Shown one piece after another: positions 5,259-20,941 of a stretch of DNA of 64,000 nucleotides (positions are counted from its first letter, which is position 1; each line of letters begins with the position of its first letter). Origin of the DNA: Deltaproteobacteria bacterium (GTDB taxonomy: Bacteria; Bdellovibrionota; FAC87; UBA2466); the NCBI GenBank assembly GCA_900299195.1, contig OMIX01000089.1, positions 2,892-66,891 on the forward strand. The letters are read 5' to 3'. The position numbers and the translations under genes were made by a program. A model generated the notes under the pieces. The model was not told the DNA's origin. It was given only the letters and a program-made list of their open reading frames with translations, and did no database searches.

Positions 5259-5744
5259 TTAAATCAGATTCTTGGTTTTTAGTTCTTCTAAAGCCTTAAA
5301 AATATCTTCAGAAGTTCTACGAGTGATAGCCAGAGGCTCCACATAACGATAAAGTAACTTTTGATCTCTTCCTACGATACAAATGGCTCGGCTCGCTTTT
5401 CCCAACAAAAATGCTGAAGTGCAACGGTAGGCCTTAGCTACTTCATTTTTTACATCTGTGACTAGAGGAAAAGAAAAACCAAATTTCTGAGAAAACTTTT
5501 GATGCTTTTCAGAGCTATCTTTGCTGAGTCCCAGAAGTTGAACATCCCATTTTTCAAAACCACTAAAATTATCCTGATAATCACACAGTTGTTGGGTGCA
5601 AACCGGAGTAAAATCGCCTGGATAAAATATCAAAACGACCGGTCGCTGTTTGCAGGCCTCGGCCAAGTGAAATTGCGTTCCATCGGCTTTCACCAGTTTA
5701 AAATCAGGGGCCATGCTTCCAATGACGGGTTGAGTCTCTTTCAT
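5259..5744 (-). CDS. bcp: Thiol peroxidase / peroxiredoxin, Bcp-type (AhpC/TSA family)
   Basis: Motif FYPGDFTPVCTQQL with peroxidatic Cys, 161 aa. Immediately downstream of the ABC-F gene. Confidence 0.85.
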   Translation of the reverse strand: MKETQPVIGSMAPDFKLVKADGTQFHLAEACKQRPVVLIFYPGDFTPVCTQQLCDYQDNFSGFEKWDVQLLGLSKDSSEKHQKFSQKFGFSFPLVTDVKNEVAKAYRCTSAFLLGKASRAICIVGRDQKLLYRYVEPLAITRRTSEDIFKALEELKTKNLI

Positions 5745-5875: not shown

Positions 5876-6811
5876 ATGAACCCTTTCTCCTACAGTCACC
5901 GGCTAAAACTGGGGTTGTCCCTGCTACTACTGATTTTATGGCCTCTCTCCGCTCTGGCTGAGCCTTACGAGCCCCCAGAAGATCGAGAACTTGAACTTAG
6001 ACCTTATTTCGAACCCCCCAATAAAGACCTCACCCCTAGAAACTTTCTTTTGCCCCCTCTCATGTCTTTTCTTATTCCCGGATCTGACCAGTGGGTAGAA
6101 GGTCAAATGAAGCCAGCCGCACTTTATACTGGCGGTGGGGCTTTAGGAGCTTTACTTCTCACACAGGCAAAGAAAACAACTCTGGATAATCGTTATAGAG
6201 ACTTTGCTTGGAGTATCTATTTTACCGCTGGAGGGTTAAGTCTTTATCACAGCTTCCACACGGCTTTAACGACGAGAATGCCAGGGGGCGAGTTTACTTT
6301 TATGGGCTCGGTCCCAGAAAAACCGACTGAGCTATTAGAAGCTCCTATTAACTTTAGCTACTTGGGCCGTTGGACCACGTTACTCCCTCTCAGTCTAGCA
6401 GCTGGCGTCTTTTTTTTCGTAACTCCTAATACCACTGCTGAAAGCACCCCAGCTAATCTCGACGATGCCTTTTATGCAGGCTCGGTAGGTTACATGACCG
6501 GGATAGGCGAAGAGGCTGTTTTTCGAGGTTTTGTCCTTCCAGTGCTTTATCACTACACTTCGGATCAACGGCTTACCCTAGGTCTTTCCAGCATTCTTTT
6601 TGCTTTGGGCCATGGATTGAAAGTGAGCCACTTTGTGACCGCTTTTTTCTTTGGGTTGTACTCGGGCTGGTTAACTCAGGAAAACAACTGGTCCATCGGT
6701 GAGGTCACCTTCATCCACACTTGGTGGGATATCATGGCATTTATGGCCGATTACACTAACCACCGCAAACACGCCTTTTTGAAGTTACCTACCATAGCAA
6801 TCAGCTTCTAA
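5876..6811 (+). CDS. CPBP-family (CAAX) intramembrane metalloprotease
   Basis: Signal/TM N-terminus, multiple TM helices, conserved EEAVFRGF ... FALGHG motifs typical of Abi/CPBP proteases. Confidence 0.7.
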   Translation: MNPFSYSHRLKLGLSLLLLILWPLSALAEPYEPPEDRELELRPYFEPPNKDLTPRNFLLPPLMSFLIPGSDQWVEGQMKPAALYTGGGALGALLLTQAKKTTLDNRYRDFAWSIYFTAGGLSLYHSFHTALTTRMPGGEFTFMGSVPEKPTELLEAPINFSYLGRWTTLLPLSLAAGVFFFVTPNTTAESTPANLDDAFYAGSVGYMTGIGEEAVFRGFVLPVLYHYTSDQRLTLGLSSILFALGHGLKVSHFVTAFFFGLYSGWLTQENNWSIGEVTFIHTWWDIMAFMADYTNHRKHAFLKLPTIAISF

Positions 6812-8251: not shown

Positions 8252-9241
8252 ATGGGGTATCGAGTAGGCATTATCGGAGCTGGCCTTATCGGAAACAAAA
8301 GGGCTAAAGCTCTTCGTTCTGAAGATAGGTTAGTAGCTGTTGCGGATCTCTCTCTTGAAAGAGCCCAATCCCTAGCTGAAACCCACCAAGCCCAGGTGGA
8401 ATCCTCATGGGAAAATCTCATTGAAAGAGCTGACATTGATGTTGTCATCGTGGCCACCTCAAATAATGCTATCCCCCTTTGTGCCGCCAGGGCTCTAAAA
8501 AACAAAAAAGCTATTTTGATTGAAAAACCCGGGGGAAGAAATCCTCAGGAGTTAAAAGGACTACTTGAGCTAGAAAAAGAAACTCAACAAGTGGCTAGAG
8601 TAGGCTTCAATCATCGGTTTCACCCGGCCCTACTCAAAGCCAAAAACATGATCGAAGAAGGTGCCATCGGAGAGATCATGTACTTAAGAGCTCGTTACGG
8701 ACATGGAGGGAGAATCGGCTACGACCAGGAATGGCGAGCTAATCCAGAAATCTCAGGTGGGGGAGAACTTTTAGATCAAGGGGTTCACTTGATCGATCTT
8801 TGTCGATGGCTGGGGGGTGAATTTCATTTGGAGTACGGTCGAGTTCACACTTTTTTTTGGAACATGCCCGTTGAAGACAATGGATTTCTTCTTTTAAAAT
8901 CTCCAGATCAAAAAAGGTTTGCGCATCTTCATGCAAGCTGTACCGAATGGAAAAACATTTTCGATTTTGAGGTTTTTGGTAAGAAAGGGAAACTCCAAGT
9001 GTGGGGGTTAGGTCGAAGTTATGGAACTGAGGAACTTCGTTTTTACAAAGTAAAACCTGAAATGGGAGTTCCTGACTTCTTCGTAGACTCGTTTCCTGAA
9101 GAAGATCATTCTTGGGAACTAGAATGGAAAGCTTTTATTGATTCTCTAGAAGGGAAACCCTCTTCAATCAGCACCCTTCAAGATGCTTATCAAGCCTTAG
9201 ACATCGTCTATAAAGCCTATCAACAATCAGGGAATCGCTAG
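8252..9241 (+). CDS. Gfo/Idh/MocA family NAD(P)-dependent oxidoreductase
   Basis: N-terminal Rossmann motif GIIGAGLIGNKRAKAL, EKP motif (ILIEKP), C-terminal alpha/beta domain. Confidence 0.85.
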   Translation: MGYRVGIIGAGLIGNKRAKALRSEDRLVAVADLSLERAQSLAETHQAQVESSWENLIERADIDVVIVATSNNAIPLCAARALKNKKAILIEKPGGRNPQELKGLLELEKETQQVARVGFNHRFHPALLKAKNMIEEGAIGEIMYLRARYGHGGRIGYDQEWRANPEISGGGELLDQGVHLIDLCRWLGGEFHLEYGRVHTFFWNMPVEDNGFLLLKSPDQKRFAHLHASCTEWKNIFDFEVFGKKGKLQVWGLGRSYGTEELRFYKVKPEMGVPDFFVDSFPEEDHSWELEWKAFIDSLEGKPSSISTLQDAYQALDIVYKAYQQSGNR

Positions 9242-10996
9242 TTCCTGAATTTGCTCAAAAAACTTTTCGTCCCACAAGTAATTAGGATCGTAGGGATAAC
9301 TTACCATGGACATTATTCGACGATAATAATCTTCTTCTTCTCGTGTTCCTCTGATTTGAGCTTTTATCGGCTGACTATCTTGAGGAAGACTTTCTAAAAT
9401 ATCTTCTAACCCATCATAAATTTTGGGCACTTTGAAAAGTTGCGGAGACCGGAAAAGTGGAAAGAAAGATACTTCCGAAGAGATAGCGCTTTCAATCACG
9501 GCTGAGGAATCATTACAAATACCGACATAGGCATAACCATCTGAGGGATAATCCTTAGCATAAAGCTGGGCCTCTTTGCGAATTCGTCTTAAGTAAAGTT
9601 CAGCGTATCGAGTTGCCTTTTTGATGATGGCTCTATTTTGAGGAGAATTATCAAAAATCTGAAACCGATGGGCTAGGCCGGTCCATTGAGGCCTTTCCTC
9701 GTCAAATTTCGGGAAAAACCCTACCCCGCTAATACCCAAGAAAAAATTCACCCGAGCATTAACGACAGGTCCCGTCACTTGCCAAACAAATTGGGAATGA
9801 GGGGCGGGTAAAAGCAATTCATCACCTGACATCGATTGGATTTGAGTTTTAAACCAAACGGGCCATCGAATATATTTTTCCCCTCTTGCGTAAGATAGAA
9901 AATTCGCAAAGGTTCTCTCATCTCGTAATTCAATGTGATGCCCCGTAGCCCACAAGAGTTCCAAAAACTCGTTCAACTGGGTCACTTTCATTCGTTCGTT
10001 GCCTTCAAAAGGAAAAGATAGCTCATACCCTTTTTGCTCAGCTAGAGCGGTCATAACTGAACTTAAAGCTAAATTTTGAGCCATCATCTTTAAAGGGACC
10101 GATTCTGAGACAAAATGGCCGTAACCGATATTGGGTAATTTGGGATCAACAGCCTGCAATTTTGGATAAGAAGTAAACTCATTACTTGCAATGACATCTT
10201 CCCACTGAGCAGGTAAGAGACTGTTTTCAGAACCTGCTTTCTTCTTTCCGATAAACTTAGATAAATAGGGTCTTAGGAGATTCAATTGATTGACCGAAGG
10301 TAATGTTGGAAATCGGGCTAGAGCTTTTCCATCTTTTTTTGAGAGAACTTGGGTGACTTGACTCACCAGCTTTTGCATTTCCTCTCCAGGAACTGTGTTC
10401 AGCTTCAAAAACTGTGTGAGTTTTTCTGAAAAAACTCTAAGTTCCTCAGGCTGGAGCCCTCGAATAAACTCAGCAAGAGATAATTCAGGACGACCACACC
10501 CCGCTACGCACTCCACGTTCCATAAATCATGGCTCTTAGGAACCACTAAAAGGTAGTTACCGCTCTTTTCAAGTTCGACATGATAAATGAGCTGCTTTTT
10601 AGAGGAACTGGCTCCAGGAGATACCTCTTTAAAAAACCTCTCTTTGTGGTCCGATTCTTTTTTGATTAAAATGTGAGACGTTTTGCTTTCATCGATAAAA
10701 TCTTTGGAAGGCACCACCTTGATTTTTAGTCGGGTATTGCCGAACGAATGATATCGATAGGAGACTTGGATATCTTCAGGAAAATTCTTTTGATTGAGAA
10801 CTAAATTAAAATCTAGAGGGAATTGAAGCTTTGGTTCACCTCTATCTAAGCTATCGGCCCACAGAAGGGAACCACTCAAAACGAAAGTGAATGCGAAAAT
10901 AAAAAGACGATACGCCTTAGGTATCCCAAGCCTCAAAAACACGACTGACCTCCTGAAAAGCAAACGCAAATTAAGGCATTTGCTGCATCGGGTCAA
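9227..10996 (-). CDS. Hypothetical exported protein (589 aa)
   Basis: N-terminal hydrophobic anchor or signal, no recognized domain. Lies 14 bp downstream of the small Cys/Arg-rich ORF on the same strand. Confidence 0.55.
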   Translation of the reverse strand: MTRCSKCLNLRLLFRRSVVFLRLGIPKAYRLFIFAFTFVLSGSLLWADSLDRGEPKLQFPLDFNLVLNQKNFPEDIQVSYRYHSFGNTRLKIKVVPSKDFIDESKTSHILIKKESDHKERFFKEVSPGASSSKKQLIYHVELEKSGNYLLVVPKSHDLWNVECVAGCGRPELSLAEFIRGLQPEELRVFSEKLTQFLKLNTVPGEEMQKLVSQVTQVLSKKDGKALARFPTLPSVNQLNLLRPYLSKFIGKKKAGSENSLLPAQWEDVIASNEFTSYPKLQAVDPKLPNIGYGHFVSESVPLKMMAQNLALSSVMTALAEQKGYELSFPFEGNERMKVTQLNEFLELLWATGHHIELRDERTFANFLSYARGEKYIRWPVWFKTQIQSMSGDELLLPAPHSQFVWQVTGPVVNARVNFFLGISGVGFFPKFDEERPQWTGLAHRFQIFDNSPQNRAIIKKATRYAELYLRRIRKEAQLYAKDYPSDGYAYVGICNDSSAVIESAISSEVSFFPLFRSPQLFKVPKIYDGLEDILESLPQDSQPIKAQIRGTREEEDYYRRIMSMVSYPYDPNYLWDEKFFEQIQELAIP

Positions 10997-11009
10997 TACA
11001 CTATTTTAG

Positions 11010-11246
11010 CTAGCAGATACGACGACAGCGGGTTCGGCATCGAACTCTAGCTACCGAGTAACATCGCACCCGTTTCACGCATCTAGAAACCGGCCGAACG
11101 CACCTTCGAGCACAAGGTCTAGCCCTAACAACGGGCGCACAGCCATGGCTTCCACATCTAGCTTCTGCCGGTGTAGGCGCTAATGTAGCTAAAGTTACTC
11201 CGACTAAAAACAACCCTTTAATCGTATTTTTACCAATACTTAACAC
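11010..11246 (-). CDS. Small secreted Cys/Arg-rich cationic peptide (78-aa precursor)
   Basis: GTG start preceded by AGAGGGG SD at about 8 nt. Canonical signal peptide (LFLVGVTLATLAPTPAEA) with AXA cleavage site. Mature 49 aa has 10 Cys and 13 Arg. Confidence 0.45.
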   Translation of the reverse strand: MLSIGKNTIKGLFLVGVTLATLAPTPAEARCGSHGCAPVVRARPCARRCVRPVSRCVKRVRCYSVARVRCRTRCRRIC

Positions 11247-11273
11247 AGTTTTACCCCTCTATTAATTCCAACT

Positions 11274-11307
11274 CCTAGGTGAGAACTGATTGAAAGTTCT
11301 CACTAGG
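11274..11307. promoter_or_regulatory. Near-perfect 13/14-bp inverted repeat (cctaggtgagaact N7 agttctcactagg) in the leader of the small peptide gene
   Basis: Seen directly. It sits about 25 nt upstream of the SD on the transcribed strand and is not followed by a U-run, so an operator or 5-prime-UTR structure is more likely than a terminator. Confidence 0.4.
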
Positions 11308-11519
11308 TTCCGTCTGGGCTAAGAGCAATGAATGTACCAAACTAAAAATAGGTTATCTTCGAAGGTTACAATTGTCCTATAGGTGGGCAAACGAAAACTT
11401 GTTAAACAATTTCATTAAAAGCGACAAAATTTGTTACTTTGTGGAACCCAATGGGACCGGACCGTAGCGTTCAGATTTGGATTACCTAGCTACTTCGAAA
11501 AGTGCTTTCCTTCCGCTGA

Positions 11520-12356
11520 TTAGGTTTCAATTTCGATTTCAAGCGCACATTTCAAAATAAAATCAATTTCGGATTCATCCAACGAAAGCAAGACTGAAGC
11601 AAGATCTTCTTCCATGTGTTTAGGCTGGGTAGTTCCAGTCAGAGGCAACATTCCTACTTGTCGAGCAAAAGCAAAAATAATTTGTGCGGGAGTAGCTCCT
11701 CGTTTTTTTGCCATGTCTATCACTTGAGGAAATTGCATCACAAACGGATTGGCTGTGAGAAGAGAAAAACCCTGGTAAGTTATCCTGTGGGCTGCACATA
11801 TTTTTCTCACATGAAAATCCCATCCGGTTTGAGCAAAACATCGATTTTGAACCACTTGAGGTTTGATCCGTGACTTTTCTACCAACTCTGTCAATTGGAG
11901 ATGATTAACATTACTTACTCCAATTTGTTTTGCTTTTCCTTTGTCGTAAACTTTCTCTAAAGCTTCCCAAACTTGCCAATCTTCTTCCCCCAAGTTCGGA
12001 TGATGATAAGGGCCGTGAAGCAAATAAGAATCTAGGTACTCGACTTTTAAATGGTCTAGAGACTTTTCAATCGATTGCTCGACTTGAGTTTTGATTGGCG
12101 CTGTTGGATCGTAAGGAACGCGATGATCTTGCCCCCCGATTGGAGTAAATTTCGTTTGAATAAAAATACTTTCTCTACGATGCCCCTCTTTAAAATAATG
12201 TGCTAAGGCTTCTCCCACTAGAGGTTCGGTGTAGTGCTTAGACTGATTGGCAGTGTCTATTGCGACGAACCCTTTTTTAAGCGCTAATGCTACCAAGTCT
12301 TGGGTTCGTTCCTTTTTCCATGCTGTTCCGTACATTAAAGAAAATTTCACAAACAT
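11520..12356 (-). CDS. Aldo/keto reductase family oxidoreductase
   Basis: AKR N-terminal pattern (GTAWKKE..., AIDTANQSKHYTE), 278 aa. Confidence 0.85.
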   Translation of the reverse strand: MFVKFSLMYGTAWKKERTQDLVALALKKGFVAIDTANQSKHYTEPLVGEALAHYFKEGHRRESIFIQTKFTPIGGQDHRVPYDPTAPIKTQVEQSIEKSLDHLKVEYLDSYLLHGPYHHPNLGEEDWQVWEALEKVYDKGKAKQIGVSNVNHLQLTELVEKSRIKPQVVQNRCFAQTGWDFHVRKICAAHRITYQGFSLLTANPFVMQFPQVIDMAKKRGATPAQIIFAFARQVGMLPLTGTTQPKHMEEDLASVLLSLDESEIDFILKCALEIEIET

Positions 12357-13650: not shown

Positions 13651-14988
13651 TTACTGTTTCTGAATGGGTGGACCCGATTTCTCTGGAACATCCTTCAATT
13701 CAAAACTGTCGGTCTGAGGAATTTCCTCCGACTTCTGCTGTTTCAGTTGAGATTTCGAAGGTACCTGAGTTTCAGGAATGACTTTCTCCGATGCCTTCAC
13801 CGAAGTGATTGGAGCCGCAGGGGCACTTCCCCATCCCAATGCTAACGAGGCCAAATATCTTCGGCTCTCTCTTCGATTGCCTTCACTAGTCTCCTCACCG
13901 TAAGTCGCTAAATCTAGCCTTAAAGCATAGAGATTGATTCCAAGTCCGGCCGAGAGATATCCCTGATTAAGACCAGCTCTCACTGAGAATCTCCCCATGG
14001 GAACCTCGACCCCCAAGTGAAGTTTCTTAACAAAATCTCCGGTTCTAGCCCCAAAGTCTGCCCGGTTTTCTCCCCCTAAAGAAATATCAGAAATGTCGGC
14101 TAGCACATGGAAGTTATCAATGAAGGAAAATCCTTCAAAAGCGGTATACCAACCCAAGTTAACCGTTCGAACAAGACCTGGAGCCCCGGCGTTTTGTTTA
14201 GCAATCGCAAACTGAGTTGCTAACAAATTACTCAAAACAATCGAAGCTCGACTTAACACCCCAAAAGGAAGTTGTTTTATCTCGTAAGTCGCTCCTAAAT
14301 CAAGATCGACTCCCATCCCACTTCCCCCGATTTTAGCCGGATCAAAATCGATGGCAGAACTATTGTTATATTCGGCAAGAGTAAAGGGTTTTCTGCCAGC
14401 CCCTCGCAACAAACCTTTCAGATTTGCGCCTAGATGTAAGTTGGAATCGAAAAATGATTGGGCATATCCAATGAGCAGTCCCGAATCGCTGATGAAAGAC
14501 ATCTCGGCCACTTCAGTATTCACATCAGCCAAACTAGCGATGTCTGAACTGGATTTCAGAATATTAAAATTGAGTTTGGTATCGGCTAATAAAAGTCCCA
14601 CCGCAAGATTTTTGGTTAGAAAATAGGGTAAAAGCCCCACACTTCCAAACATAGGTTTTTCTTTATGTTTGTCTAATCGATTGATGGCCTGATTAATGTT
14701 GAGATCTCCCAGATCTTTGAAATCATTAAAACCAGAAATGGCATTGGAAGACACATTCCCATTCACTCTCAACATCACTTCAGTGCCACTGCGTCTTAAA
14801 CTTAAACCAGCCGGATTCGAAAAGAGTGCGTATTCATCCTCTGAAATTCCATAGAAGGCTCCGCCCATTCCCATGGACCTTGGGCTGCGTGAAAGACTGT
14901 AAAATTCTTTCACTGCAAATAAGGGGTAAGAAAAAAAAGTTAAACCTAATAGGATAACAAAAAGGTGTTTCATGGAGATCTCTCTCAA
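13651..14988 (-). CDS. Outer-membrane beta-barrel protein, FadL/TodX-like (paralog A), with a low-complexity C-terminal tail
   Basis: Signal peptide. N-terminal motif RSMGMGGAFYG...DEYALFSNPAGLSL resembles the FadL GLGRAYSG...NPA region. Alternating amphipathic strands. Paralogous to the 37702-39144 ORF. Confidence 0.5.
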   Translation of the reverse strand: MREISMKHLFVILLGLTFFSYPLFAVKEFYSLSRSPRSMGMGGAFYGISEDEYALFSNPAGLSLRRSGTEVMLRVNGNVSSNAISGFNDFKDLGDLNINQAINRLDKHKEKPMFGSVGLLPYFLTKNLAVGLLLADTKLNFNILKSSSDIASLADVNTEVAEMSFISDSGLLIGYAQSFFDSNLHLGANLKGLLRGAGRKPFTLAEYNNSSAIDFDPAKIGGSGMGVDLDLGATYEIKQLPFGVLSRASIVLSNLLATQFAIAKQNAGAPGLVRTVNLGWYTAFEGFSFIDNFHVLADISDISLGGENRADFGARTGDFVKKLHLGVEVPMGRFSVRAGLNQGYLSAGLGINLYALRLDLATYGEETSEGNRRESRRYLASLALGWGSAPAAPITSVKASEKVIPETQVPSKSQLKQQKSEEIPQTDSFELKDVPEKSGPPIQKQ

Positions 14989-15087: not shown

Positions 15088-16038
15088 TTAAAAATCTTTG
15101 GATAACTCGAGGCTATGAGAAAAAGCGATGTCAGACCACTTGAAGATCTCTGGACGATTGGATCGATGAGTCAGAAAAAGCAAACCGGTTTTTTGGTTTG
15201 GATTTTCATGAAATAGGGCACAGATTTCTTTTCCCGTTTTATCTTTGATGATTTGAACATTTTCTGGCAATTGTCCGGTTTGGAAGTATTGATTCAAAAT
15301 TTGGTTTCTCTTTAAAGTGTAACCTTCAGGGGGATTCCATGCGCTTCCGATTAAACGAGTAAAAGCATCGACGGAATCGGGTCGATACTCTTCAGGTAAC
15401 TCTTTCCGAGCAAAGGAGTAAAGCGCTTGAATCTCCTCCATGATAGCTTTTGAGGCCTCAGTGGAAGGCTCCATCCCGATCGCTCTTTTGTAGAGCATCA
15501 CCACACCGAAATGCTGCTGACTATCCGTGACCATTCTGCGATATCCGCCAGCTTTTAGCATCTCGATCATTTGATTTTTTACATGGAGAAAAACTTCAAT
15601 TGGAAGTCCTTTTCTAAGTTGATCGGCATTCAATTTATTGGGGGCCTGGGGCGCTAAGGGGTTTTCTAAGACTAGTCCATCGACCGAAATAGATTCAGGT
15701 TTGGTTTCATCGGGAATTAAAGTAACGTGAACGTAAACTCGTCCCGCAACTTCCCCATTAATTCGTAATCGACCTGTGGGTAAATATTCCAGCCTCAGAG
15801 AAAAAGGGCCTTTCTTACTTTCCACTTCCTTCACGAACGCTTCTGGGAACAACTGAGCCGTCGAAAGTTTTAGATTTCTTTCCTTAAATTGCCAAGGTTC
15901 AAAAGCATTGGGCTTAGAATCAGAAGAGCTAAGCGCAACTTTAGAAAAAATATAGTCACAGTCAGCATAGGAAGGCTCTCCCCCCACCCATGCAATCCCT
16001 AAAAGAAAAATCAAATGGTAAAGCTTCGCCTTTTGCAC
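15088..16038 (-). CDS. Hypothetical secreted protein
   Basis: Signal peptide (LIFLLGIAWVGG), no recognized domain. Confidence 0.55.
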   Translation of the reverse strand: MQKAKLYHLIFLLGIAWVGGEPSYADCDYIFSKVALSSSDSKPNAFEPWQFKERNLKLSTAQLFPEAFVKEVESKKGPFSLRLEYLPTGRLRINGEVAGRVYVHVTLIPDETKPESISVDGLVLENPLAPQAPNKLNADQLRKGLPIEVFLHVKNQMIEMLKAGGYRRMVTDSQQHFGVVMLYKRAIGMEPSTEASKAIMEEIQALYSFARKELPEEYRPDSVDAFTRLIGSAWNPPEGYTLKRNQILNQYFQTGQLPENVQIIKDKTGKEICALFHENPNQKTGLLFLTHRSNRPEIFKWSDIAFSHSLELSKDF

Positions 16039-17039: not shown

Positions 17040-17753
17040 GTGTATTCTAGGCTTAAAATCACTGGATTTTATTTTGCAGCTTCCTCTAAGTGGGGGGGCG
17101 CTGTATCTGTTCAGCGCGATTCAATCATGTATAGCCTTTCGATTCCGCTGCCATTCACACTGTTTTTTCTTTTTCAGTTTTTGTTCTATTCCAACACCCG
17201 TGGGAATGATCACGGTCCCGATTCGAAACAATCGAACCCATCTTTTAGTGCCAGCGATTTTGAATGTGTGAAATCTGAAAATGGATTTCGTCCCCGACAC
17301 AAAGAGATAAAAAAGCCCCTGGGTGCGGGAACTTTTAAAACTCTAGAAACCTGTAAACAAGCAATCAAGGTTTCAAAAAACGATATCGTTTGTGCGTCTA
17401 CCGGGCTCCCAGGAGGATTCAAACCTACTTTCAAAGCTGGGGTCACTCCATCCCGGCCAGATTGGGGATATGTCGGTGGTTCATCAATGACGCTTGAAGC
17501 CTGTCTTTTTGCCACAGAACAATCTCTGCCATCATCTATTTGTTTCTTTGGAGGAAAAGACGGCGTAACTGTCGGAGGTCCCGAAACCCCAGGTTGGTAT
17601 GCAACCCATCCCTCGGGCAATAAAAGCCGAAAAGGTGGCCCCTATGAATCTCTCCAAAAATGTGTCGAAGCGACTCATATAAAGTTCGAAGAGGACAAAA
17701 AACAGTTGAGGGGACTTTTTGAAAGTCTGCCCGATTCTGAAATCGCCCAATAG
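17040..17753 (+). CDS. Hypothetical secreted protein with three internal Cys-containing repeats
   Basis: Hydrophobic N-terminus. Likely true start near 17128 (MYSLSIPL...). Three repeats of G..t/sLExC..A (FKTLETCKQA / MTLEACLFAT / YESLQKCVEA). Confidence 0.45.
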   Translation: MYSRLKITGFYFAASSKWGGAVSVQRDSIMYSLSIPLPFTLFFLFQFLFYSNTRGNDHGPDSKQSNPSFSASDFECVKSENGFRPRHKEIKKPLGAGTFKTLETCKQAIKVSKNDIVCASTGLPGGFKPTFKAGVTPSRPDWGYVGGSSMTLEACLFATEQSLPSSICFFGGKDGVTVGGPETPGWYATHPSGNKSRKGGPYESLQKCVEATHIKFEEDKKQLRGLFESLPDSEIAQ

Positions 17754-17777: not shown

Positions 17778-19562
17778 ATGAACTCAAAAACACCCTTTTT
17801 GGTCTTTTACATGGGATTAATGACTCTGGCCCCGACTGGAACTTTGATTGCAGACCGCAGCTCTTCTCGCTGGGATAGACTAGAAAAGCAACTTAAAGAA
17901 GATTCCCATGACCCTGATTTCCCACAAAGAGTCAAAGAGCTTTCAGACTTTCTTAAGAAAACCCAGCGCCCTTCCTCGAAACAAAAAAACTCAAAAGATG
18001 CCCAAGATTGCGATTGCGAGCCAGAGTCTCTAAAGTCTCCGTTTCACAACCCAAAAACAGCAGATTTGAAACCTCACAACTCTTTAATTACGAATGCCTG
18101 CTTCGATTGTCACTCTTCCCCCAACAGTGGTTTTAAGCTAACTCCATGGATTGATGATAAACAGGAATGGGAGCGAAGACTCAAATCTACGACTGCAGAG
18201 GAAAAACTTGAAGCGGAGAAATTATTAGGTCAGCTTTATCGAACTTTGGTTGATGGAAACAACATGCCTCCTGCTAGCGAATCCACCCTTCGACAACAAT
18301 TTAAAAAACATCCGAACCATGCAACTTTTGTTTCATTTATCAAAGAAAAATTTGAACAACTGCCGCAAAATGCAGTCAATACTCAAACAAGAAAAGCTGC
18401 TTCCAATCGGGTATCAGTCATGGAAGAAAAACTTGAAAACCACTACCGCAGTCTATTACCGAAAGTATCAAGTCAAACGCTGAACAACTTGTTTTCCGAC
18501 CCTAACCTTATTTTTATGGATGAAACTCACTTGGTGGCTGGTTATCAAGATCCAAGCCCCAAGGCAATGGGAGAAAGAACGACAACTTTAGGTTTTAAGG
18601 GTGCGGGTTTTGCCAAAGATGCACCCTATTTGGATAGCAAGGGACATTTAAAATTATGGACGACAGGGTTTGGAGTGGATCAAAGCCCCAACCTTAAACG
18701 GTTCCACTTTTTACAACTTCCCCAAAATGAAATGGGCGAACTTCAAAAGATCAAGGTCTCAAGCCGAAGATCAGCGTCTCCAGATGACGGTATTGTTTAC
18801 GATTGGAAATTTCCCTTGGGAACCGTTTCTGGAGAAGTGATCGCTAGTGTAGACTCTGAAGGCAAAGAGCATGTTCTGGAAGTTAGATTACGAACGAAAG
18901 ATAATTCAGAAGGCCCCTGGGGTGCAGATATTTTCAGACCTTATCCCACCAAAACTATTTTAATGGATGAACTCCTGAAAATCTCTCAAAGCAATAGTCC
19001 GCTTGCATCCGAAGCGGACAGGGTGATGAAAGAGCTTAAACTTCCAGGAAGATTAACGCCACAAAGCTCCGGAATGCACGGCTACCAGAGAGGCGAACTC
19101 AATTCCGATGGTGGCACAGAAGTCTTGCCTGAAATGTCTGAAGCCTTAACAAAAAGATTACTTCAAGTCCCCTTTCAATCCTCACTCGGATCTGAATGGG
19201 ACAGAAATGAAAAAGTTAAAGCCTTTGGGGCAACTTCCGACCAACCTTTTAGTATCGTGCCTCAAAATAACACTGAGGGAAGTGTGCAAGTGGGGCGTGA
19301 AAGTTGCGGACGCTGTCATAAAAACAGTAACACACCCATCAGAGATTTTTTCAATCCCAACCACCCCAAATATTACTCTTCAATTGTGGCTTATGGAAAT
19401 ACCCCAGGCAGCGATCAGCAATTACGTTTCCACCCGTTTGACCAGGAATTGTTTAAATGGTTTGGAAATGACACCTACGAAAAAAAAATCGGAAAAGCGG
19501 ATAACCGAGAGTTTAATCCAGCACTCAAACCTATTTTGGAAATACTTCCGTCCAAAAAATAG
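17778..19562 (+). CDS. Secreted protein with two CXXCH heme-binding motifs (putative c-type di-heme protein)
   Basis: Signal peptide. CFDCH near residue 110 and CGRCH near residue 510. No other recognized domain. Confidence 0.55.
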   Translation: MNSKTPFLVFYMGLMTLAPTGTLIADRSSSRWDRLEKQLKEDSHDPDFPQRVKELSDFLKKTQRPSSKQKNSKDAQDCDCEPESLKSPFHNPKTADLKPHNSLITNACFDCHSSPNSGFKLTPWIDDKQEWERRLKSTTAEEKLEAEKLLGQLYRTLVDGNNMPPASESTLRQQFKKHPNHATFVSFIKEKFEQLPQNAVNTQTRKAASNRVSVMEEKLENHYRSLLPKVSSQTLNNLFSDPNLIFMDETHLVAGYQDPSPKAMGERTTTLGFKGAGFAKDAPYLDSKGHLKLWTTGFGVDQSPNLKRFHFLQLPQNEMGELQKIKVSSRRSASPDDGIVYDWKFPLGTVSGEVIASVDSEGKEHVLEVRLRTKDNSEGPWGADIFRPYPTKTILMDELLKISQSNSPLASEADRVMKELKLPGRLTPQSSGMHGYQRGELNSDGGTEVLPEMSEALTKRLLQVPFQSSLGSEWDRNEKVKAFGATSDQPFSIVPQNNTEGSVQVGRESCGRCHKNSNTPIRDFFNPNHPKYYSSIVAYGNTPGSDQQLRFHPFDQELFKWFGNDTYEKKIGKADNREFNPALKPILEILPSKK

Positions 19563-19600: not shown

Positions 19601-20941
19601 TTAAAGTTCTGTAGCTTTTTCAAGCCGTTGAATCCGTTTCAAGAATGCCCCAGCTTGAAAGCGTAGCTTAGGAATCCAATAATAGGGTTTAAATTCTAAA
19701 AATCGTCTCTGATAGATCGATAGATATCTTTGTACTTGTTCTTGCGAATAAGCCAGTCCATTATCGGCATATTTACCCACATAAATCGAAAAGTCAGAAT
19801 TGAGATCTTGAGTCGTCCACTTCCCATTCAGAGTAACTTTCATAAAATTGCCAATTAATAAATCCTCAAAAATTCCAAGCTGAATCGAAAGCATGAGCGA
19901 ATTTCTTGGAACTTCAAAAGTGATTCCTCTTTGAAATTGTCTAGTTTTCCAAGTCACACGATTATCTACACCGCCAACCCGCACATTGATAAAATCTAAA
20001 TAGTTTCCAAGATGTTCAATCCGCTTAAAATACTTTTCGATCTGTTCAAAATCACCCTTGTGAAGGGGCTCATCCCAATCATCCCCAAATTCTTTACAAT
20101 TTCTAATTTTTATCGGCATAGATTCGGGACGAATTTCAATCCAGCTTTCACTATTAAAATCATACCGAATAAACGCCGGTAAAATCTGACTTATTTCTGA
20201 CTGATACCCTTCGTATAGGTCCTGCATCCTCCTGGAGTAATCATTGGCCCAAGCACTATCATTTCTTTGGAACGCATGGAAGGAACTACTAGGAACAAAA
20301 TACCGGGCTCCAAATCGCTCTGCCTTTTTTGCATTTTCGATACCCGCGGGCGGCCGATTCAAATACTCCTTTGGGACAATGAATTGTCCGTTCTCATCAT
20401 AGTAATTAAGCATATCGGCGATACCTAGCGATGAGATCGAGAAAAGAAATGAATTTTGATATTTTTTGCCTAAATTTTTGATGTAATGGTTTCTGCCAAA
20501 ATCAACAGCATCATTGCAGTTAATTAACAAATTATTTTTTACTTCAATAAGTAAAATCGAGTCCTGATACTGGTCTGACCAACATAAAACTCTGACATTC
20601 TCCGAAAGGGAATACCACTTTCTATCTTTGAGAACTGTAACATCATATCCTTCTGCTCTTAGACCAGAAGCAATGCGCCCTCCCACATGGTCTGCTAACA
20701 ATATCTTTCTGTCCTTGAATTTAGGAAGTGAGTCTGGGTTTAAGTGGTCTGGATGCCCATGCGAAAACCAAACATATTTTGCATTTAGGATCGATTCCAT
20801 CTGAACTTGGGGAATTTGGTAGTTACAAATCCAGCTACCAAAATAAGCGTCTGGAGTGATCCAAGGATCGGTCACTAAGATCGGGGCTTCATCGTGAACA
20901 ATGATGGTTGCATTACCAATCGTTTCAAATCCCAGCTTCAT
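19601..20941 (-). CDS. MBL-fold metallo-hydrolase (COG2220-like N-domain) with an uncharacterized C-terminal domain
   Basis: GNATIIVHD...ILVTDPW and HGHPDH metal-binding motif. About 230 additional C-terminal residues without recognizable motifs. Confidence 0.6.
   Translation of the reverse strand: MKLGFETIGNATIIVHDEAPILVTDPWITPDAYFGSWICNYQIPQVQMESILNAKYVWFSHGHPDHLNPDSLPKFKDRKILLADHVGGRIASGLRAEGYDVTVLKDRKWYSLSENVRVLCWSDQYQDSILLIEVKNNLLINCNDAVDFGRNHYIKNLGKKYQNSFLFSISSLGIADMLNYYDENGQFIVPKEYLNRPPAGIENAKKAERFGARYFVPSSSFHAFQRNDSAWANDYSRRMQDLYEGYQSEISQILPAFIRYDFNSESWIEIRPESMPIKIRNCKEFGDDWDEPLHKGDFEQIEKYFKRIEHLGNYLDFINVRVGGVDNRVTWKTRQFQRGITFEVPRNSLMLSIQLGIFEDLLIGNFMKVTLNGKWTTQDLNSDFSIYVGKYADNGLAYSQEQVQRYLSIYQRRFLEFKPYYWIPKLRFQAGAFLKRIQRLEKATEL

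Follow-up and report, generated by a model that had tools for sequence, protein, structure and literature searches.

Here, we analysed a 64-kb stretch of DNA (the window throughout; contig OMIX01000089.1 of assembly GCA_900299195.1, a Deltaproteobacteria bacterium), in which a short open reading frame (ORF) with an Arg- and Cys-rich product lies upstream of the gene for a large, predicted exported protein. We refer to the two as the mini-ORF, encoding the mini-protein, and the partner gene; both are read from the minus strand. Judged by its codon-level evolution, the mini-ORF is a genuine, conserved and unannotated protein-coding gene under purifying selection. While its taxonomic range is narrow and the mechanism suggested below is a proposed one, the gene itself is solid and unusual.

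The mini-ORF and its orthologs

A first-pass annotation, made from the sequence alone, had pointed to a 78-residue ORF with a GTG start on the minus strand, to an AGAGGGG Shine-Dalgarno (SD) sequence at ideal spacing before it and to a raised GC content compared to the flanks, and all three features were borne out (Table 1). The GC content is 0.53 at positions 11000-11199 and about 0.38-0.42 in the flanks, a rise caused by the Arg, Cys, Ala and Pro codons of the mini-ORF. The six frames of the window contain 342 segments of 49 amino acids (aa) or more without a stop, and a composition like that of the mature mini-protein was found in just one of them.

Since a word-indexed protein search came back empty and gene callers had often skipped the ORF, orthologs were reached via the neighbouring 571-aa partner protein. 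Relatives of the partner in two metagenome-assembled genomes (MAGs; Deltaproteobacteria bacterium and Bdellovibrionaceae bacterium UBA2466) are only 47-51% identical, and in both MAGs a similar mini-ORF occupies the corresponding place, with the large partner gene on one side and an aldo/keto reductase gene on the other. We collected 15 such loci from assemblies and metagenomes, with about 12 distinct peptide variants; wherever the partner is at least 47% identical, the mini-ORF stands at the same position (15 of 15 loci). Identity to the window copy is 47-69% for the mini-protein, compared to 47-55% for the partner protein. A hidden Markov model (HMM) built from seven variants replaced a loose Cys/Arg composition filter, which had given many off-frame false positives in high-GC loci. 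It recovered each close-clade locus with an expectation value (E) of 1e-29 to 1e-37, and nothing else among 6,377 six-frame segments scored better than E 0.44. When 1.84 billion protein representatives were scanned exhaustively with HMMER, three true homologs emerged (E 1e-16, 1e-12 and 2e-7), all within the same clade, together with one further match, a spurious repeat protein. One homolog (MSP19642.1) is listed merely as 'hypothetical protein' of a Bdellovibrionales MAG.

The frame of the mini-ORF is the sole one of six that is open in all seven orthologs tested. Among the orthologs, the proportion of differing synonymous sites (pS) is 0.55-0.86, i.e. saturated, compared to 0.06-0.44 for nonsynonymous sites (pN), the ratio of nonsynonymous to synonymous substitution rates (dN/dS) is 0.06-0.4 (0.06 for the closest pair, L008 and L010), and differences in length always comprise whole codons. 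The start codon is conserved, as is a GGGGTA-type purine run at the position of the SD sequence (seven of seven orthologs examined). Could the mini-ORF still be non-coding, either a frame left open by chance where GC is high or the trace of a structured RNA or of a regulatory DNA element? Gene callers passed over it in four of the six distinct assemblies reached by exact protein match (L003, L004, L007 and L008), the first protein search gave no matches and the composition of the product is of low complexity. This view is countered by the single open frame, the saturated synonymous sites and the low dN/dS, by the conservation of signal peptide, start codon and SD sequence, by the clean separation in the HMM search (1e-29 or better versus 0.44 or worse) and by protein calls for the ORF in further assemblies (P0047-P0049 and MSP19642.1). 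The first-pass annotation had named a match to a structured RNA and a lack of conservation as signs against a gene; Rfam returned nothing even at E ≤ 10 in positions 10700-11700 on both strands, and related genomes have kept the ORF. By this codon-level evidence the non-coding reading is refuted for practical purposes, and we regard its remaining chance as negligible.

The uncalled copies lie at 946-1182 in L003, 429-665 in L004, about 1170-1397 in L007 and 226-480 in L008, in 'intergenic' gaps of approximately 500 nucleotides (nt), and because callers left them out, the family nearly escapes protein-database searches. The word-indexed search gave no matches with the mini-protein although homologs exist, as low-complexity words are evidently missed by the index. 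Nothing was found either by looking up the exact sequences of the mini-ORF, the two partner translations (589 aa and 571 aa), the aldo/keto reductase and the database protein P0001, probably in part due to translation of GTG as Val. In agreement with the earlier statement that the peptide belongs to no annotated family, no significant match was obtained in Pfam, NCBIfam, PDB sequences, the phage library PHROGs, the defence-system library PADLOC or Rfam; in Pfam this held at E ≤ 0.1 and included the defensin, protamine and metallothionein models held there. In the literature on Bdellovibrio-like bacteria, we found no description of such a peptide. The result is an annotation gap: a strongly selected gene was left uncalled in four of six assemblies and no family database covers its product. 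Partner homologs of at most 39% identity occur mostly in high-GC organisms, amid unrelated housekeeping genes and without a mini-ORF, which indicates that the mini-protein is an innovation of one low-GC clade (about 43%), placed before a pre-existing gene. As far as these searches reach, it is confined to a small group of uncultured Bdellovibrio-like bacteria.

Table 1 Features of the mini-ORF, its upstream region and the partner gene (positions in the window)
Feature	Position	Strand	Remarks
Mini-ORF, 78 aa	11010..11246	-	GTG start; read from sequence
Stop codon of the mini-ORF, TAG	11010..11012	-	
SD sequence AGAGGGG	11254-11260	-	7 nt before GTG
Predicted signal peptide, residues 1-29, MLSIGKNTIKGLFLVGVTLATLAPTPAEA	11160..11246	-	basic n-region, hydrophobic core of ~13 residues, Pro at -6, A-x-A at -3/-1
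Mature peptide, 49 aa	11013..11159	-	9 Cys, 15 Arg, 1 Lys, 1 His, no Asp/Glu; isoelectric point (pI) 11.6
Leader stem-loop	11274..11307	-	13-bp stem, one bulge, 7-nt loop; in the predicted transcript from about +7 to +40
Sigma-54 (RpoN) type -24/-12 promoter, TGGTACATTCATTGCT (GG-N10-GC)	11324..11339	-	predicted transcription start near 11313
Upstream enhancer-like palindrome (box 1), GTAACAAATTTTGTCGC	11421..11437	-	centre about -115 from the predicted start
Second upstream box, TTGTTTAACAAGTTTTCGTTTG (YGTNYAACA, then CGTYTG-like half-site)	11388..11409	-	about -75 to -95
Partner gene, exported 571-aa protein	9227..10942	-	GTG start at 10942, AGGAGG 6 nt upstream
Sigma-70-like promoter of the partner gene	10968..10996	-	TTGACC (10991-10996), 17-nt spacer, TAATTT (10968-10973)

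Predicted signal peptide and mature peptide

The first-pass annotation described the product as a cationic, Cys- and Arg-rich mini-protein with a signal peptide and a mature part of 49 residues, which we can confirm; its count of 10 Cys and 13 Arg has to be corrected to 9 and 15, plus one Lys. Residues P24, A27 and A29 are unchanged across 15 sequences and an AlphaFold2 (AF2) model places a helix at residues 6-21. The architecture points to a signal peptide of the Sec type with cleavage after the A-x-A motif. The mature peptide is roughly one third Arg and about one fifth Cys. Its variants comprise 46-55 aa with 13-17 Arg, 8-11 Cys, exactly one His and no Asp or Glu (pI 11.4-11.8). A GSHG motif is conserved just past the predicted cleavage site. 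It is followed by an x-R-x-C tetrapeptide periodicity, resulting mostly in CxxxC spacing, and by a tail of the form V-x-R-x-R-C-x-x-x-C-R-R-x-C, the last residue being an invariant C-terminal Cys.

Cys residues number 8, 9, 10 or 11, their count is odd in five of 12 variants and positions are won and lost singly; both the single changes and the odd numbers argue against a rigid, fully paired disulfide scaffold. AF2 modelling of the mini-protein with eight homologs gave no confident fold, only low-confidence helices (predicted local distance difference test (pLDDT) 50, predicted template modelling score (pTM) 0.22). We looked for a DNA tandem repeat in the mini-ORF and found none, which rules out DNA slippage as the source of the peptide repeats and indicates that the periodicity is kept by selection at the protein level.

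The lineage of L009 (914-1168) and P0049 has a CGRSR pentapeptide repeat instead of x-R-x-C, with Val and Pro swapped for Ser and Gly. It has lost one C-terminal Cys and has kept GSHG, VTRxRC and the final Cys, and these retained features would mark what is essential in the mini-protein. Two further candidate properties were rejected. A lipobox-like sequence occurs only in L008 (IAGC) and L009 (VASC) and most variants have no Cys at +1, which speaks against a lipoprotein. An amino-terminal copper- and nickel-binding site (ATCUN; N-terminal X-X-His) is not a general feature, as the His is third in two lineages only and fourth to sixth elsewhere.

A short, Cys-rich peptide also brings to mind the precursors of ribosomally synthesised and post-translationally modified peptides (RiPPs), in which an N-terminal leader would precede a Cys-rich core modified, e.g. 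to thioethers, by a nearby enzyme. The mini-protein shares its shortness and CxxxC-type repeats with TIGR04117, the 'Cys-Xaa-Xaa-Xaa repeat radical SAM target', and with SCIFF-type precursors. The compositional likeness to TIGR04117 is weak (E 0.076) and its 13.1 bits are far below the family cutoff of 50, and the N-terminus has the architecture of a Sec signal peptide and not that of a cytoplasmic RiPP leader. No gene for a radical-SAM maturase, a lanthionine synthetase, a cyclodehydratase or an ABC/peptidase exporter adjoins the mini-ORF; the neighbours encode an aldo/keto reductase, a GFO/IDH/MocA oxidoreductase, a SIS protein and a transaldolase, and the sole conserved neighbour is itself exported. 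We thus consider a RiPP precursor very improbable.

Predicted promoters, leader and partner gene

Canonical -24/-12 elements of sigma-54 promoters have the form TGGCAC-N5-TTGCW with GG-N10-GC spacing. Upstream of the mini-ORF, TGGTA(C/T)-N5-TTGCT is invariant in seven of seven aligned loci, surrounded by sequence that cannot be aligned, and its distance to the start codon is 77-88 nt (77 nt in the window). The window copy, TGGTAC-N5-TTGCT, is the only match on both strands of the 64 kb, with 0.16 expected by chance. In each of the 15 mini-ORF loci the motif occurs exactly once, always upstream and on the same strand, and it was found nowhere else in the 261 kb of fetched loci. At the predicted start, a CGGA motif (ACGGA or TCGGA; window 11310-11314) is kept in most loci and is consistent with a conserved initiation region.

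Further upstream, the palindrome of box 1 has the form xACAA-N3-TTGTC. Of 11 distinct orthologous loci, 10 carry it between -110 and -121 and the remaining one (L014) has a one-base variant; in the window it is unique at up to two mismatches. We infer that it is a binding site for a sigma-54 activator. In the second box, AACA is invariant and the flanking TGT and CGT are conserved in all aligned loci, making it a candidate regulatory site near -90. Both lie at the distance from the promoter, about 80-150 bp, at which sites for an enhancer-binding ATPase are expected. The combination of such sites with a sigma-54 promoter implies that an NtrC-type regulator gates expression in response to a signal, and the pattern of conserved motifs strongly suggests that the mini-gene is transcribed from such an activator-gated promoter. 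No sigma-54 gene or activator was found in the window or in the close-clade loci, from which follows that the activator would be unlinked and encoded elsewhere. In L005 (795-2135) and L006 (531-1871), a gene with Response_reg and Sigma54_activat domains (NtrC-type) is located upstream of a partner homolog of 39% identity, two genes away, and this homolog has neither a mini-ORF nor a TGGYAY-N5-TTGCW motif; the case of L005 indicates that sigma-54 regulators occur beside the partner family elsewhere.

A small periplasmic protein under this kind of control is known from enterobacteria: the gene of ZraP is sigma-54-dependent and activated by the two-component system ZraSR, encoded by the adjacent and divergent zraSR, and ZraP itself is a helical, His-rich, zinc-binding oligomer. 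Both ZraP and the mini-protein are small exported proteins with a sigma-54 promoter and upstream activator sites. However, they share no sequence similarity, and the mini-gene has no linked activator.

The first-pass annotation had noted a 13/14-bp inverted repeat in the leader, and this repeat holds up as a stem-loop with a folding free energy (dG) of -16.6 kcal/mol (z = -3.4; none of 200 shuffles is as stable). In nine of 11 distinct orthologous loci, the first ~52 nt of the leader fold with z ≤ -2.5. The stem sequences differ between lineages, i.e. the structure is conserved and the sequence is not; the leaders are too divergent to be aligned. Structure kept without sequence fits selection on an RNA structure rather than on a sequence-specific operator. 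The suggestion that the palindrome recurs as an operator of a regulon was rejected, as the window holds no second copy and the orthologs do not share its sequence. We strongly infer that the 5' leader of the mini-gene mRNA is structured as a stem-loop, whose most likely role is to stabilise the mRNA or to adjust its translation.

The partner gene had been described as encoding a 589-aa protein that begins 14 bp downstream of the mini-ORF. Both numbers need revision. The TTG at 10996, from which the longer ORF was read, falls inside TTGACC-N17-TAATTT; the start is most likely the GTG at 10942, which makes this ORF 18 codons too long. From there, the 571-aa product is identical to P0001 and the spacer measures 67 nt (67-157 nt across seven loci). 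TATTGAC-N17-TA(A/T/G)(A/T)TT and an AGGAG SD sequence align in seven of seven loci. The -10 element is weak, with three of six matches, and lies below the threshold of a generic promoter scan. The partner gene probably has its own promoter of the sigma-70 type. No terminator was found between the two genes in the window, which makes read-through from the sigma-54 promoter into the partner gene plausible. In L008 (about 500-545) and L010 (about 590-615) only, a GC-rich hairpin without a T-run follows directly on the stop codon of the mini-ORF; these hairpins may be 3' stabilisers or partial terminators uncoupling the mini-gene from the partner. The genes are adjacent in all 15 loci, including L009 with its different upstream neighbour. 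The idea that the two products act together was hence strengthened by their constant co-occurrence, while the tight junction that had suggested it is gone and the partner has a promoter of its own.

The family of the partner comprises about 45 clusters, stands isolated and lacks any annotated domain. The partner has no match in Pfam, NCBIfam or PDB sequences; a profile search with the family found no more distant annotated relatives, and a Pfam scan of each member gave no more than two weak PPC hits. The neighbourhoods of distant homologs, made up of unrelated housekeeping genes, hold no functional hint. The AF2 model (pLDDT 85, pTM 0.86) consists of a signal-peptide helix, an N-terminal beta-sandwich, a helical linker and a large C-terminal domain. 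Employing Foldseek, we found that the beta-sandwich resembles collagen-binding domains, PPC (pre-peptidase C-terminal) domains and CPE (enterotoxin) C-terminal domains (E about 1e-4), and that the C-terminal domain (about residues 260-571) has no match. Invariant residues are His335, His382, Arg453, Cys476 at the start of a helix, Asp478 and Glu484. These residues suggest a Cys/His enzyme, and the C-terminal domain may represent a new enzyme fold.

Is the mini-protein then made for this partner? It might be a substrate that the partner cleaves or cross-links, an inhibitor or chaperone holding Cys476 in a mixed disulfide until delivery, or a cationic adaptor to an anionic surface. Such a dedicated role fits an adjacency that survives a changed upstream neighbour, the predicted export of both proteins, the combination of invariant His335, His382, Cys476 and Asp478 with a binding-module domain, the odd Cys counts that leave an unpaired thiol in many variants, and the possible co-transcription in the window. 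It fits less well with the more distant members of the partner family, which all lack such a peptide, with the separate conserved promoters of different sigma classes and with the hairpins after the mini-ORF stop in some lineages; moreover, the enzymatic nature of the partner is deduced from its invariant residues alone, its C-terminal domain being without a fold or family match. We therefore judge a dedicated role rather unlikely.

Possible functions, related peptides and neighbouring genes

The first-pass annotation had likened the composition of the mini-protein to that of disulfide-rich cationic antimicrobial or defensin-like peptides, or of a metal-binding peptide. Defensins of the cysteine-stabilised (CS) alpha-beta type follow the Cys pattern CX(2,18)CX(3)CX(2,12)CX(4,17)CXC, in which a helical CxxxC pairs with a CxC in the last strand (PMC11561630), and bacterial cis-defensins form five classes, mainly from myxobacteria and actinobacteria (PMC11561630). 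Like the mini-protein, bacterial cis-defensins are made ribosomally as precursors with a signal peptide and give small, cationic, Cys-rich mature peptides, and their myxobacterial producers were once placed under 'Deltaproteobacteria', as was the clade of the mini-protein. Yet, none of the 12 mature variants fits the pattern and none has a CxC. In CS-alpha-beta defensins, the Cys residues are constant and even in number (6 or 8) and form a conserved disulfide framework, in contrast to 8-11, often odd, in the mini-protein, which is also far more Arg-rich than the bacterial cis-defensins, matches them neither in sequence nor in profile and gave no confident fold when modelled. By its Cys pattern, the likeness to defensins is not supported.

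In composition, other peptides come closer. Protegrin, tachyplesin, polyphemusin and arenicin are Arg- and Cys-containing beta-hairpin peptides of animals, 17-21 residues long, with exactly two conserved disulfides. They resemble the mini-protein in the alternation of Arg with hydrophobic residues or Cys (e.g. VRVRCRTRCRRIC), in a very high pI and in a precursor with a signal peptide, and differ from it in length (about 50 residues in the mini-protein), in number of Cys (8-11) and in their animal rather than bacterial origin; no homology was detected. In mammalian protamine P1, Cys residues form intermolecular disulfide cross-links and Arg residues bind the polyanion. Like the mini-protein, it has about 50 residues, is dominated by Arg and contains several Cys, and it offers the best analogy for a variable and odd Cys count. 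However, protamines are nuclear, have no signal peptide and carry their Arg in long runs instead of an x-R-x-C periodicity. With no match to the Pfam family Protamine_P1, the likeness is one of convergent composition. By analogy, the mini-protein is most like cationic Cys-rich host-defence peptides or protamines and is a member of neither. Exported cationic Cys-rich peptides as a general type have precedents, and the mini-protein is thus not categorically new; as a Sec-exported peptide, it would in composition resemble protamines or the hairpin antimicrobial peptides of animals more closely than any bacterial family described so far.

We lean tentatively towards a reading in which the mini-protein is an exported polycation that binds polyanions, cross-links via its non-fixed Cys residues and works with the exported partner. 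A signal would activate an enhancer-binding ATPase at the palindromes about -90 and -115, upon which the otherwise silent sigma-54 promoter fires. The peptide would be exported by the Sec system into the oxidising periplasm or to the outside, where it might behave as a polycation in the manner of protamines or antimicrobial peptides. Its Arg residues could bind polyanions, such as lipopolysaccharide (LPS) and membranes, cell-wall polymers or nucleic acids, and the variable, often odd Cys residues could form intra- and intermolecular disulfides, locking or cross-linking the peptide in place. There, it may act jointly with the adjacent exported protein, i.e. a beta-sandwich binding module with a putative Cys/His catalytic domain, which would be expressed from its own sigma-70-like promoter and in the window probably also by read-through.

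Several points weigh against this proposal. A strong polycation in the producer's own periplasm would seem to need immunity or onward secretion, and no such system is evident near the mini-ORF. The partner occurs without the mini-protein in all relatives of at most 39% identity and hence does not need it, and its own promoter suggests partly independent expression. The missing linked activator adds to this list, cleavage of the signal peptide is predicted from sequence architecture, and the composition is equally compatible with thiol or metal chemistry.

The last point leads to a different function, that of a periplasmic buffer for thiols, metals or metalloids induced by envelope or metal stress. 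Low-pKa Cys thiolates amid Arg, together with the Cys/His GSHG N-terminus, would capture soft metals (Cu, Zn, Cd, Hg) or oxyanions that react with thiols (arsenite, selenite, tellurite), or would scavenge oxidants. Its regulatory logic would be like that of ZraP. A Cys content of about 18-20% in variable number without a fixed disulfide framework, one invariant His that is flanked by Cys in many variants (CGSHGC), the CxxxC periodicity and a promoter with enhancer sites that fits signal-specific stress induction would agree with such a function, as would, weakly, an AhpC/TSA peroxiredoxin gene in the wider neighbourhood. In contrast, a net charge of about +16 without any acidic residue would repel metal cations, and in the oxidising periplasm the Dsb system would oxidise any free thiols that lack protection. 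The mini-protein is unlike known metallothioneins or copper-storage proteins, gave no significant Pfam or NCBIfam match to metallothionein, Csp or other metal-binding families, and no metal sensor, efflux pump or resistance gene adjoins it. We regard this buffering function as unlikely. If it were correct, the mini-protein would be an unusual polycationic periplasmic thiol protein.

Returning to the exported polycation, a bolder version appears somewhat unlikely to us: the mini-protein would found a new class of exported bacterial polycations, protamine-like peptides with Arg/Cys repeats and without a defensin fold, deployed together with a novel Cys/His enzyme by possibly predatory Bdellovibrio-like bacteria in response to a sigma-54-gated signal. 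If true, its use might lie in permeabilising or cross-linking the envelope of competitors or prey, or in condensing their nucleic acids, and both the peptide and the C-terminal domain of the partner would be new functional types. If antimicrobial or active on envelopes, the mini-protein would offer a scaffold short enough to be synthesised, from a lineage whose members are known to attack other bacteria. The sigma-54 promoter implies a specific inducing signal and thereby provides a way in, first to the activator and then to the signal.

In the surroundings of the two genes, Pfam gave no match at E ≤ 1e-5 for a run of five ORFs of 237-594 aa (13651-14988, 15088-16038, 17040-17753, 17778-19562 and 19601-20941). 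A gene for an Rce1-like/CPBP intramembrane protease (5876-6811, plus strand) is four genes away from the mini-ORF, and the AhpC/TSA peroxiredoxin gene (5259-5744, minus strand) lies still further off. Proteins of the CPBP family have been associated with the processing of bacteriocins and with immunity to them. A CPBP gene is also present at the edge of L010, and the link may be mere shared synteny. The partner gene converges with the gene of the GFO/IDH/MocA oxidoreductase (8252-9241, plus strand); their 3' ends overlap by 15 nt (9227-9241), and a matching convergent overlap of 12 nt is found in L003, L004 and L007.

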